Below the pieces are notes generated by a model, which was given only the letters and a program-made list of their open reading frames with translations, was not told where the DNA came from and searched no databases. Shown piece after piece: positions 2,173 through 7,771 of a stretch of 64,000 nucleotides of DNA. The stretch lies in assembly GCF_054482525.1 (NCBI RefSeq), contig NZ_CM137006.1. One strand, given 5' to 3'. The position numbers and the translations under genes were made by a program. Positions within the stretch are counted from its first letter, which is position 1. Every line of letters begins with the position of its first letter.

Positions 2173-3330
2173 GTGACTTATTTCCGTATTAATCCTGTTC
2201 TGGCGCTGCTGCTGTTGCTGACGGCAATCGCAGCGGCGCTGCCGTTTATCAGTTACGCGCCTAATCGTTTAGTTTCGGGTGAGGGGCGTCATCTCTGGCA
2301 GCTGTGGCCGCAAACGATCTGGATGCTGGTGGGCGTTGGTTGCGCCTGGATGACAGCCTGTTTTATTCCCGCTAAAAAAGGCAGCATTTTTGCACTCATT
2401 CTGGCGCAATTCGTCTTCGTATTGCTGGTGTGGGGAGCAGGAAAGGCGGCGACACAACTGGCACAAAATGGCAGTGCGCTGGCGCGTACCAGCCTCGGCA
2501 GTGGTTTCTGGCTGGCTGCGGCGCTGGCATTGCTGGCCTGTAGCGATGCCATCCGCCGAATATCCACGCATCCGCTGTGGCGCTGGTTGTTGCATATGCA
2601 GATTGCCATTATTCCGCTGTGGTTGCTGTACGCCGGCACGCTTAACGATCTCTCGCTAATGAAAGAATACGCCAACCGTCAGGATGTGTTTGACGACGCG
2701 CTGGCACAACATCTGACGTTGCTGTTTGGTGCGGTGCTGCCTGCGTTAGTGATTGGTGTGCCGTTGGGCATCTGGTGCTACTTTTCCACTGCGCGGCAGG
2801 GGGCGATTTTTTCGCTACTCAATGTCATTCAGACCGTGCCTTCGGTAGCGCTCTTTGGCCTGTTGATTGCGCCGCTTGCCGCGCTGGTTACGGCCTTTCC
2901 GTGGCTGGGTAAGCTCGGCATAGCAGGAACAGGCATGACACCCGCACTGATTGCGCTGGTGCTCTATGCCTTGCTGCCGCTGGTGCGCGGCGTTGTAGTC
3001 GGCTTGAACCAGATCCCGCGCGATGTGCTGGAGAGCGCCAGAGCGATGGGCATGAGCGGGGCGCAGCGATTCCTGCATGTTCAGTTACCGCTGGCGTTAC
3101 CGGTATTTCTGCGTAGCCTGCGGGTGGTGATGGTGCAAACCGTCGGCATGGCGGTGATTGCGGCGTTAATCGGCGCAGGCGGTTTTGGTGCGCTGGTTTT
3201 CCAGGGGCTGCTAAGCAGTGCCATTGATTTAGTGTTGCTGGGGGTGATCCCGGTAATTGTTCTGGCGGTGCTGATCGATGCGCTGTTCGATTTGCTTATC
3301 GCACTGCTGAAGGTGAAACGTAATGATTGA
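2173..3330 (+). CDS. yehY: ABC transporter permease
   Basis: 385 aa, highly hydrophobic multi-pass translation; stop overlaps the next gene's start. Confidence 0.85.
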
Positions 3331-4249
3331 ATTTAGCCATGTCAGCAAACTGTTCGGCGCACAAAAAGCCGTTAACGATCTCAATCTCAATTTTCAGGAG
3401 GGGAGTTTTTCGGTGCTGATTGGTACATCAGGCTCCGGTAAATCCACCACTCTGAAAATGATTAACCGCCTGGTGGAGCATGACAGTGGCGTGATCCGCT
3501 TTGCCGGAGAAGAAATTCGCTCGCTGCCAGTGCTGGAGTTGCGCCGCCGGATGGGCTATGCCATTCAATCTATTGGCCTGTTTCCCCACTGGAGCGTGGC
3601 GCAAAACATCGCTACCGTGCCGCAATTACAAAAATGGTCACGGGCGCGGATCGACGATCGTATCGACGAATTAATGGCGCTACTGGGGCTGGAGCCAAAT
3701 TTGCGTGAGCGTTATCCGCATCAGCTTTCTGGCGGTCAGCAGCAACGTGTGGGAGTGGCGCGCGCACTGGCTGCCGATCCGCAAGTCTTACTGATGGATG
3801 AACCTTTTGGCGCACTGGACCCGGTAACGCGCGGCGCGTTGCAACAAGAGATGACGCGCATTCACCGTTTGCTGGGGCGCACTATTGTGCTGGTCACTCA
3901 TGATATTGATGAGGCGCTACGGCTGGCAGAACATCTGGTATTGATGGATCACGGTGAAGTGGTGCAGCAGGGCAATCCGCTGACGATGCTGACTCGTCCG
4001 GCGAATGATTTTGTCCGCCAGTTTTTTGGGCATAGTGAACTGGGTGTCCGCCTGCTTTCGTTACGTAGTGTGGCGGATTACGTGCGTCGCGAAGAACGGG
4101 CAGAAGGTGAGGCACTGGCAGAAGAGATGACGCTACGCGATGCGCTCTCCCTGTTTGTCGCGCGGGGATGCGAGGTGCTGCCGGTGGTGAACACGCAGGG
4201 CCAGCCTTGCGGCACGCTGCATTTTCAGGATCTGCTGGTGGAGGCGTAA
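3323..4249 (+). CDS. yehX: ABC transporter ATP-binding protein
   Basis: Walker [13 protein letters not shown] signature LSGGQQQR and Walker B LLMDEP are visible in the translation. Confidence 0.9.
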
Positions 4250-4253
4250 GCGT

Positions 4254-4985
4254 ATGAAGATGTTGCGCGATCCGCTGTTCTGGCTCATTGCTTTGTTTGT
4301 GGCACTGCTTTTCTGGCTGCCTTACAGCCAGCCGCTGTTTGCTGCCTTGTTCCCACAACTGCCACGACCCGTTTATCAGCAGGAAAGCTTTGCAGCTCTG
4401 GCACTGGCTCATTTCTGGCTGGTGGGAATTTCGAGTTTGTTTGCGGTGATCATTGGTACTGGTGCCGGAATTATTGTTACTCGCCCGTGGGGCGCGGAAT
4501 TTCGCCCACTGGTGGAAACTATTGCCGCCGTTGGGCAGACTTTTCCGCCCGTTGCGGTGCTGGCGATTGCCGTTCCGGTGATCGGCTTTGGTCTGCAACC
4601 CGCGATTATCGCCTTGATCCTTTACGGCGTGCTGCCCGTCCTGCAGGCGACACTTGCCGGGCTGGGAGCGATTGATGTCAGCGTGACAGAAGTTGCGAAA
4701 GGTATGGGAATGAGCCGTGGTCAGCGACTGCGTAAGGTCGAGCTACCGCTGGCGGCTCCGGTGATTCTGGCGGGCGTGCGAACTTCGGTGATTATCAACA
4801 TTGGTACGGCGACGATCGCCTCAACGGTAGGGGCCAGCACGCTGGGTACGCCCATCATCATCGGGCTTAGCGGATTTAATACCGCGTATGTGATCCAGGG
4901 GGCGTTACTGGTGGCACTGGCGGCGATCATTGCAGACCGCCTGTTTGAAAGGCTGGTGCAGGCGCTTAGCCAGCACGCAAAATAA
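4254..4985 (+). CDS. yehW: ABC transporter permease
   Basis: 243 aa hydrophobic permease; last gene of the osmF-yehYXW block. Confidence 0.85.
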
Positions 4986-5073
4986 AGGTATAACCTGCGA
5001 GCATGACGCCACCAATTCCGCCTAACGCCATAAACAGGAACAGGGCGATGACCCCAATTTTAGCTATGCGCAT
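4966..5073 (-). CDS. yohO: Small membrane protein, 35 aa ([35 protein letters not shown])
   Basis: Hand-translated from the minus strand (ATG at 5073, TAA at 4966); too short for the ORF track; single hydrophobic helix; matches my recollection of K-12 YohO between yehW and mlrA. Confidence 0.7.
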
Positions 5074-5132
5074 AATGCACTCCTTATGTTAACGAAAGGA
5101 TTGTACAGTAAAGCGCATTTGTTAACGAATGA

Positions 5133-5864
5133 TTAAATGCCGAGTGGGAAAATATCATGGCCTTGTTCCTGCCAACTGGTAAGTTGCTGCTGTTGGGCAG
5201 AGGTTCGATTTTCACCGCACCACACCAGCAATGTACGGCCTTCGAACAGTTCAGGGCGTAGTTGATTGAGCGAGTGGGCGAGGACATCAATGCGCCATCC
5301 TTGTTGACTGGCAATCCAGCCCTCCAGCCACAGACGGGTGGTATCGTGAATATTCCAGCCAACCACCAGCGCATCTTTACCCTGTTTTTTACGTGCCGAA
5401 GCCAGACAAATGGCGATGTAGTTGATCAGTACGCCGTCGAGGATCGCCAGCAGCGCCTGGAGAGTCGGTTGTTGGCACTGAAGTCGTCGGCGCAGAGGAA
5501 TAAACAGATGCGTGGTGAGTGTCTGGGCGGGGTAATCCTGACCGCGCTCTTTGATCCACGTTCGCAGGCTATGCAGATTGCCGCTTTGCAGGTAAGTCAG
5601 TAATGTTTCTTGCTGATCGCGCCAGCCGTTCTGCACATCAACATTTTCATTACTGAGCAGCATTTTAACTTTGCTGACCTGCACGCCGTTGTCGATCCAG
5701 CGTTTGATCTCGCGGATCCGGTCAATATCGGCATCGTTGAACAGCCGATGGCCGCCGTCTGTTCGTTGCGGTTTCAGCAATCCGTAACGCCTCTGCCACG
5801 CGCGTAACGTGACAGGGTTAATATCACAAAGCAACGCCACTTCACCAATTGTGTAAAGCGCCAT
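5133..5864 (-). CDS. mlrA: MerR-family transcriptional regulator MlrA
   Basis: 243 aa; N-terminal MerR-type HTH (YTIGEVALLCDINPVTLRAWQRRYGLLKP). Confidence 0.9.
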   Translation of the reverse strand: MALYTIGEVALLCDINPVTLRAWQRRYGLLKPQRTDGGHRLFNDADIDRIREIKRWIDNGVQVSKVKMLLSNENVDVQNGWRDQQETLLTYLQSGNLHSLRTWIKERGQDYPAQTLTTHLFIPLRRRLQCQQPTLQALLAILDGVLINYIAICLASARKKQGKDALVVGWNIHDTTRLWLEGWIASQQGWRIDVLAHSLNQLRPELFEGRTLLVWCGENRTSAQQQQLTSWQEQGHDIFPLGI

Positions 5865-6085
5865 CGTCTCACCCTTGCTCGCGAGGTCCCGGTTTAACTT
5901 TAGACGCAGTTTTGCGAACCAGGTAGTTTTGCCCGTTTTTTGTGCATCTATAGGGTGATTTTATTTTTGCCAGGCGATTTTGAGTGATCGTACTCACGAA
6001 TTCTCATTTTTCTGCAAGAGTTCAAAGAAAGTTAAACGCAGGCAATGTATGTTACGCGTTTTAAAGGGAAGTGTGGTTTGCGGGT

Positions 6086-7771
6086 ATGTACGATTTTAAT
6101 CTGGTGTTGCTGCTGCTTCAGCAGATGTGCGTTTTTTTAGTCATTGCGTGGTTAATGAGTAAAACGCCATTATTCATACCGTTAATGCAGGTCACGGTTC
6201 GTCTGCCGCATAAATTTCTCTGCTACATCGTCTTTTCCATCTTCTGCATCATGGGCACCTGGTTTGGGTTGCACATTGACGATTCTATTGCCAATACCCG
6301 TGCGATAGGCGCGGTAATGGGCGGCTTGCTCGGCGGTCCGGTCGTCGGTGGGCTGGTTGGTCTGACCGGCGGGTTACATCGATATTCGATGGGGGGCATG
6401 ACCGCGCTAAGTTGCATGATCTCGACCATCGTTGAAGGATTGCTCGGCGGCCTGGTACACAGCATCCTGATCCGTCGCGGGCGCACTGATAAAGTCTTTA
6501 ACCCCATTACCGCCGGTGCCGTCACGTTCGTCGCTGAAATGGTGCAAATGTTGATCATCCTGGCGATCGCCCGACCTTATGAAGATGCGGTGCGTCTGGT
6601 GAGTAATATTGCTGCGCCAATGATGGTTACCAATACCGTCGGCGCGGCGCTGTTTATGCGTATATTGCTCGATAAACGCGCGATGTTTGAAAAATACACT
6701 TCGGCTTTTTCTGCCACTGCGCTAAAAGTGGCTGCCTCGACGGAAGGCATTTTGCGCCAGGGGTTTAACGAAGTTAACAGCATGAAAGTGGCACAGGTGC
6801 TGTATCAGGAGCTGGATATTGGTGCAGTCGCGATTACCGATCGAGAGAAATTGCTGGCCTTTACCGGAATTGGTGACGATCACCATTTACCCGGCAAACC
6901 GATTTCTTCGACTTACACCTTAAAAGCGATTGAAACCGGTGAAGTGGTCTACGCTGATGGCAACGAAGTACCTTATCGTTGCTCTTTGCATCCGCAATGC
7001 AAACTGGGGTCGACGCTGGTAATTCCGTTGCGTGGTGAAAATCAGCGGGTGATGGGCACCATCAAATTGTATGAAGCCAAAAACCGTTTATTCAGTTCAA
7101 TCAACCGCACGCTGGGCGAGGGGATTGCGCAACTGCTTTCGGCGCAGATCCTCGCCGGGCAATATGAGCGGCAAAAAGCGATGCTCACCCAGTCAGAGAT
7201 CAAACTGCTTCACGCCCAGGTGAACCCCCATTTTTTGTTTAATGCGCTTAACACCATTAAAGCGGTGATCCGCCGCGACAGCGAACAGGCCAGCCAGCTG
7301 GTCCAGTATCTTTCCACTTTTTTCCGCAAAAACTTAAAGCGGCCTTCGGAGTTTGTTACTCTCGCAGACGAAATTGAACATGTGAACGCTTATCTGCAAA
7401 TTGAAAAGGCGCGCTTCCAGTCGCGGTTGCAGGTCAACATTGCTATTCCGCAAGAATTATCCCAGCAGCAATTGCCCGCGTTTACCCTGCAACCGATAGT
7501 GGAAAACGCCATTAAACATGGGACATCACAACTGCTCGATACAGGGCGAGTGGCAATCAGCGCCCGACGTGAGGGGCAACATTTGATGCTGGAGATCGAA
7601 GACAATGCCGGTTTGTATCAACCGGTAACCAATGCCAGTGGGCTGGGGATGAATCTGGTGGATAAGCGTTTACGTGAACGGTTTGGCGATGACTATGGGA
7701 TAAGCGTCGCCTGTGAGCCTGATAGTTACACCCGAATAACGTTACGACTACCATGGAGGGACGAGGCATGA
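6086..7771 (+). CDS. btsS: LytS-type sensor histidine kinase BtsS (YehU)
   Basis: Multi-pass membrane N-terminus plus GAF-like and His-kinase regions; start placed at [10 protein letters not shown] giving 561 aa. Confidence 0.88.

Follow-up and report, generated by a model that had tools for sequence, protein, structure and literature searches.

The small membrane protein gene yohO of Escherichia coli and its conserved tail-to-tail overlap with yehW

The window analysed in this work is a stretch of 64,000 nucleotides of NCBI RefSeq assembly GCF_054482525.1 (contig NZ_CM137006.1). It carries a short open reading frame on the minus strand that lies downstream of a regulatory gene on its own strand and runs, tail to tail, into a transporter gene on the other. 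The coding features of this locus are the following.

4966..5073, minus strand: yohO coding sequence, 35 amino acids plus a stop codon, ATG start (list of open reading frames, RefSeq, NF010225, pN/pS, AlphaFold2)
4254..4985, plus strand: yehW coding sequence, a permease of 243 amino acids (list of open reading frames, Pfam BPD_transp_1 with E = 1e-27, RefSeq)
5133..5864, minus strand: mlrA coding sequence, a MerR-type regulator, the upstream neighbour on the strand of yohO (list of open reading frames, NCBIfam MlrA equivalog with 551 bits)
4966..4985, both strands: dual-coding overlap of 20 bp, with both stop codons inside it (sequence)

The open reading frame at 4966..5073 is best explained, as a whole, as the already annotated E. 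coli gene yohO (b4542) of the UPF0387 family, a reading to which we give a probability of about 85%. The encoded peptide is identical to UniProt entry YOHO_ECOLI, and it scores 80.1 bits (cutoff: 57) on the NCBIfam equivalog NF010225, "protein YohO", over its full length (1-35/35). In the RefSeq annotation of E. coli K-12 MG1655, yohO (b4542; product YP_588460.1, "UPF0387 family protein YohO") is found at 2215657..2215764 and yehW at 2215745..2216476, i.e. with the same 20-bp overlap as in the window. The comparison with this E. coli gene gave no difference: sequence, length, orientation, and coordinates relative to mlrA and yehW are all identical. The relative RefSeq coordinates of yohO and yehW are also the same in E. 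coli PCN033, which is 100% identical to the window across 701 bp. A 701-bp query around yohO was found in 5423 of the 5426 complete E. coli genomes, at a median of one place per genome, and the features under the match are annotated as yehW, yohO, and mlrA. Precomputed family labels assign the YohO orthologs to PF27791 (UPF0387_membrane). The profile search against Pfam-A returned no match for YohO, the PF27791 model being absent from the copy searched. The initial annotation of the locus had called this gene yohO, an identification borne out by RefSeq, by the score on NF010225, and by the identity to YOHO_ECOLI.

The convergent partner, yehW, is the last gene of the osmF-yehYXW operon, which encodes a glycine betaine ABC transporter (RefSeq, Pfam, NCBIfam). 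The genes of this operon are closely packed. The yehX stop codon lies at 4249, 4 nt before the yehW ATG at 4254 (window 3323..4257), and the RefSeq coordinates of yehY and yehX share 8 bp; tight junctions of this kind typically go with translational coupling, here among the genes of osmF-yehYXW. A genomic SELEX study listed an intragenic (type D) peak of the RpoE holoenzyme inside yehW, between yohO and yehX, with an intensity of 4.0, which is the cutoff value itself (PMC5493296, Table 5). On the other side of yohO, the gap to mlrA is 59 nt in the window. Further along, the open reading frame of btsS (6071..7771, plus strand) opens at a GTG at 6071, and the RefSeq start is placed 15 nt downstream, at 6086.

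Open reading frames of the size of yohO are common in the window, with 295 of 30-45 amino acids. Of these, 91 start with ATG, and only 2 combine an ATG with an upstream AAGGAG, yohO being one of the two; in hydrophobicity, it ranks second among these short frames. To keep the comparative sample unbiased by yohO itself, we collected 80 species-level loci by means of the neighbour mlrA. A yohO homolog is present between mlrA and a convergent yehW in all 80 of these mlrA-anchored loci, and it is an intact frame of 34-37 amino acids starting with ATG in 79. The sole disrupted copy (L008, 3293..3400) is that of Citrobacter amalonaticus AUH_CA_2023_1, where a 1-nt frameshift falls within the first ~11 codons; the frameshift could be an error of the assembly, or the gene could be a true pseudogene.

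Selection was quantified on codons 2-29 only, i.e. outside the overlap with yehW, in the 79 orthologous loci (Nei-Gojobori pN/pS). The entropies of the three codon positions in the yohO frame are 0.58, 0.24, and 1.24, and pN/pS is 0.30 in this frame as opposed to 1.19 and 2.48 when the sense strand is read in its other two frames. Hence, yohO is under frame-specific purifying selection. At the level of the protein, M1, G19, G22, V23, M24, L25, G27, Y28, and I31 are invariant, with K5, M15, A16, and I20 close to invariance. An almost invariant core, MA-x-(G/S)-G-I-(G/S)-G-V-M-L-x-G-Y, includes a small-residue face of the GxxxG type. YohO is strongly hydrophobic (GRAVY of 1.58), with a hydrophobic core at residues 6-32, and AlphaFold2 (alignment of 28 sequences) predicts one helix spanning residues 3-34, with a break or kink at G19 and a mean pLDDT of 88. 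YohO is thus modelled as a single-pass membrane protein with one transmembrane helix. The length of 35 amino acids and the single helix given in the initial annotation agree with the list of open reading frames and with the AlphaFold2 model.

The translation of yohO is also documented in published work. A preprint, which cites Hemm 2008, shows in-frame Ribo-seq coverage of the gene, and YohO is among 19 small proteins detected by top-down mass spectrometry in a 2025 study (PMC12529367). The lack of a translation signal, named at the outset as the result that would speak against the gene, is therefore not what is observed, since both published approaches detect the protein.

The YohO family appears narrow in its distribution. 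When 1.84 billion representative proteins were searched exhaustively with HMMER, only 17 matched YohO, and the named members among them are all Enterobacteriaceae. The most divergent intact members are those of Mangrovibacter and Shimwellia. Many of the YohO-like cluster representatives (P0002-P0017) are artefacts, including frameshifted read-throughs. One of them, P0012, is a fusion of YohO with a translated sequencing-adapter tail (...LIHISEPTRPY), and the differences of P0009 from YohO look like pervasive C-to-T changes.

The overlap of yohO and yehW was exactly as first described, in antisense to the last 20 bp of yehW, with 4966..4985 shared by the two genes. It encodes ...SQHAK* of YehW on the plus strand and ...ILRAG* of YohO on the minus strand, in a register that places codon position 3 of yohO on position 2 of yehW and position 2 of yohO on position 3 of yehW. 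The two genes overlap in all 80 mlrA-anchored loci, by 26 bp in 41, 20 bp in 34, 23 bp in 4, and 17 bp in 1. The sizes of the two proteins change in concert. A YohO of 35 and a YehW of 243 amino acids occur with a 20-bp overlap at 32 loci, and proteins of 37 and 245 amino acids with a 26-bp overlap at 38 loci, with no mixed combinations. This is explained by a single 6-bp indel in the overlap, which resizes YohO and YehW together. The yohO-yehW junction is dual-coded and behaves as one unit. The best 120 matches listed for YehW are all at least 78% identical to it. The last ~10 residues of YehW vary widely (e.g. ..SRHRREQ). The constraint on the overlap seems to be dominated by the small gene, because the end of YohO hardly changes within a clade, in contrast to the variable end of YehW.

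We then consider how transcription ends at this junction. Folding of the 176 nt that follow the yohO stop codon and of the 186 nt that follow that of yehW gave no significant structure (z = -1.7 and -0.2, respectively). In line with this, a scan for a hairpin followed by a T-run within 200 nt of the stop codon found a site at none of the 80 loci for yohO and at 1 of 80 for yehW. As controls for the same scan, 13 of 50 long open reading frames of the window were followed by such a site, and 15 of 400 shuffled sequences contained one. One hairpin of the plus strand in E. coli (5066-5121, ATGCGC...GCGCAT followed by UUGUU) was considered as a yehW terminator and rejected: its z is -0.2, and one of its arms consists of yohO codons 1-3 (ATG CGC ATA), which are different in other genera. 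From the overlap of the coding sequences and the lack of intrinsic terminators in these scans, we infer that the mRNAs of yohO and yehW must each extend into the partner gene, in antisense to one another over at least 20 nt. Both 3' ends would probably be set by Rho-dependent termination or by processing.

Published transcriptomes point in the same direction. ExcludonFinder places yohO-yehW among 165 convergent excludons found in at least 50% of 58 RNA-seq samples of MG1655, in a study that reports no experiment on this pair itself (PMC12288877, Table 1). With overlapping coding sequences, transcription of both genes is nearly sufficient for a pair to be listed. Like other convergent excludons, yohO and yehW are opposite-strand neighbours in convergent orientation, with overlapping transcripts and no terminator between them. 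However, the coding sequences themselves overlap here, and not the UTRs alone. Furthermore, a functional excludon is defined by mutually exclusive expression and RNase III processing, and yohO-yehW is a candidate for this class.

The gene found upstream of yohO is less constant than the one it overlaps. In most genera the gap between mlrA and yohO is 51-79 nt. Longer spacers were observed at L016 (199 nt), L017 (109 nt), and L075 (128 nt). In Mangrovibacter and Shimwellia, mlrA is missing at this place, and metG, a gene for an HTH_5 regulator, or one for a TonB-dependent receptor is found 5' of yohO instead. Both genera nonetheless keep the full 20-bp overlap with the permease gene, which is followed by the remaining transporter operon and then by bglX. 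A further context without mlrA (P0004) has btsS directly 5' of yohO and an overlap of 26 bp. The invariant partner of yohO is yehW, and not mlrA, because the overlap persists where mlrA is replaced by other genes.

The short region upstream of yohO contains several conserved signals, all on the minus strand.

5080..5085, minus strand: Shine-Dalgarno sequence AAGGAG, 6 nt 5' of the yohO ATG (sequence, alignment of 22 sequences)
5087..5093, minus strand: proximal GTTAACA element, 3' of the -10 box and 5' of the Shine-Dalgarno sequence (T51, A52, A53, C54, and A55 nearly invariant)
5100..5105, minus strand: predicted yohO -10 hexamer, TACAAT in E. coli (conservation in 22 upstream regions)
5120..5126, minus strand: distal (G/A)TTAACA element, in the -35 region just past the mlrA stop codon (T18, A19, A20, and C21 nearly invariant)

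The Shine-Dalgarno sequence is strong and fully exposed. In the alignment of 22 upstream regions its G60 is invariant and the other positions of AGGAG are conserved at 90% or more; nearly all of the 80 loci have AAGGAG, CAGGAG, or a sequence close to these. Besides G60, the only invariant noncoding positions of these 22 regions, which come from different genera, are T37, A38, A40, and T42 (TAnAnT). They define the predicted -10 box, which reads TATAAT in most genera. As this conserved block is also kept in the three contexts without mlrA, yohO would have a promoter of its own, with the -10 box ~26 nt upstream of the ATG. Transcription would then start near 5093, giving a 5' UTR of ~20 nt, and the proximal GTTAACA would lie at or near the predicted start of the transcript.

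The two TTAACA elements are 33 nt apart and flank the -10 box. We rejected the distal one as a -35 element, since 14 nt separate it from the -10 box, too few for sigma-70. The pair may be an operator for some factor. The E. coli arrangement, GTTAACA-N12-TGTACAAT, shares its geometry with the MlrA site published for the csgD promoter, AAAGTTGTACA(12N)TGCACAATTTT. This resemblance was discarded as a sign of control by MlrA, as the match covers only ~13 of 22 positions and species that lack mlrA have kept the block.

Given this organization, does the overlap couple the expression of the two genes? The proposal made in the initial annotation, that it could, is plausible, and the idea has already been catalogued under the name of excludon (PMC12288877). 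The geometry of the locus suggests that any such coupling would be antagonistic rather than a form of co-expression, since convergent transcription units interfere with each other and RNase III acts on double-stranded RNA. The general model of excludons invokes the same two effects, interference and the action of RNase III on the double-stranded overlap (PMC12288877). It would, moreover, be asymmetric: transcription that runs on by ~130 nt from the 3.9-kb osmF-yehYXW operon would suffice to cover the whole of yohO and its promoter, whereas read-through from yohO would reach only the tail of the operon mRNA. The transporter operon is sigma-S-dependent. A search of the literature found no experiment showing an effect of yohO on yehW or the reverse, nor did we find paired expression data for the two genes. 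The only expression datum found for yohO comes from Shigella flexneri, where its mRNA has a log2 fold change of -2.96 in anaerobic relative to aerobic conditions (~8-fold lower), with no significant effect of FNR listed. A physiologically meaningful effect of the overlap, through antisense RNA or interference, is possible, but we would not bet on it.

It is about as likely as not that the overlap is a neutral by-product, in which the weakly constrained cytoplasmic C-terminal tail of YehW simply runs on to the first stop codon available inside the 3' end of yohO. On this view, the overlap regulates neither gene, and YohO and the transporter are functionally unrelated. The contrast between the highly variable tail of YehW and the conserved tail of YohO fits a passive run-on of yehW, and the length of the overlap drifts between 17, 20, 23, and 26 bp. 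The overlap would by itself account for the fact that the two genes never separate. Since splitting an overlap damages a gene, the conserved linkage is trivially expected. None of the experiments that we found shows a coupling. However, the overlap was never lost, neither in the 80 loci nor in the three further contexts without mlrA. Terminators are missing after both genes across species (0/80 for yohO, 1/80 for yehW), which makes antisense transcription a built-in property of the junction, and overlapping transcripts are observed in most RNA-seq samples (PMC12288877). These observations sit less easily with pure neutrality. The opposite extreme, a conserved module of Enterobacteriaceae in which YohO would act as an accessory helix of OsmF-YehYXW, or the two genes would exclude each other through antisense transcription, or both, and in which the overlap would be kept by selection and not by inertia, is quite doubtful.

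Several small membrane proteins of E. coli bind larger ones, as in the pairs AcrZ-AcrB, KdpF-KdpABC, MgtS-MgtA, MgrB-PhoQ, and CydX-CydAB. YohO resembles AcrZ, KdpF, MgtS, MgrB, and CydX in having fewer than 50 amino acids, one transmembrane helix, a conserved small-residue face, and a gene adjoining that of a transporter. By analogy, YohO would most likely pack the glycine-rich face of its helix against another membrane protein; helix-helix packing is suggested by the invariant (G/S)GI(G/S)G...G face. The linkage suggests the permease YehW/YehY as a candidate partner, though one with rather low odds. The specific proposal of YohO as a subunit dedicated to OsmF-YehYXW, with an accessory or regulatory role and with its GxxxG face bound to YehW/YehY, is likewise doubtful. 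It can draw on the constant adjacency of yohO to yehW in all of the genomes examined, including those where mlrA and the other upstream genes differ, and on the single transmembrane helix with its invariant small-residue motif. Yet kdpF and cydX are co-transcribed with their partners, whereas yohO is on the strand opposite to the transporter operon and has a predicted promoter of its own, which implies that it is not co-transcribed with the operon. The linkage, in turn, is forced by the overlap. YohO is in no solved structure, as we found no chain in the PDB matching its profile (the closest solved relative of YehW is OpuA, 7AHC), and no interaction data were found for it.

Could yohO belong instead with mlrA? 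It would then be the distal gene of an mlrA-yohO operon, part of the regulatory module of MlrA and curli. The two genes are on the same strand, with yohO 51-79 nt downstream of mlrA in most genera and no terminator evident between them, and the yohO promoter region of E. coli has the geometry of an MlrA box. Against this, Mangrovibacter, Shimwellia, and the P0004 lineage keep yohO, the -10 box, and the TTAACA block at loci without mlrA, and the match to the MlrA box extends to only ~13 of 22 positions. We give this possibility little credit: an mlrA-yohO module is unlikely because of the conserved predicted promoter and of the genomes without mlrA.

Type I toxins are recognized by a cognate antisense sRNA, repressed translation, and often several copies per genome. 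That yohO encodes a hydrophobic peptide akin to these toxins, held down by an antisense RNA provided by the 3' end of the yehW transcript, is highly improbable. The small hydrophobic peptide with its single helix and its obligatory antisense transcript would be in line with such a system. However, yohO is a single-copy gene with a constant place in the chromosome, and purifying selection acts on it in many genera. Its Shine-Dalgarno sequence is strong and exposed, and its -10 box is near the consensus. Enough native YohO is made for top-down mass spectrometry to detect it (PMC12529367). We found no match to an antitoxin or an sRNA at yohO in Rfam, and the gene does not show the marks of a type I toxin.

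Finally, the idea that yohO is a chance open frame and not a gene, for which one might invoke the 295 frames of similar size in the window, is refuted by its frame-specific purifying selection, its conserved start codon and Shine-Dalgarno sequence, its curated family model, and the published detection of YohO by Ribo-seq and mass spectrometry.

The existence of yohO, its translation, and the listing of yohO-yehW as an excludon were already known. What this analysis adds are comparative facts: the conservation of the gene and the selection acting on it, the conserved -10 box, the overlap across species, the 6-bp indel that resizes both proteins, and the scan for terminators. The result confirms the existing annotation, and YohO is one of many small membrane proteins of E. 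coli that are established as real products. The hypotheses on its function are now narrower, as they have to account for yehW as the invariant partner, for what would be a conserved promoter proper to yohO, and for a dual-coded overlap devoid of terminators. If the overlap is regulatory, or if YohO binds the transporter, this locus would represent one more case of an excludon or of a small protein modulating a transporter, and not a new class of either.
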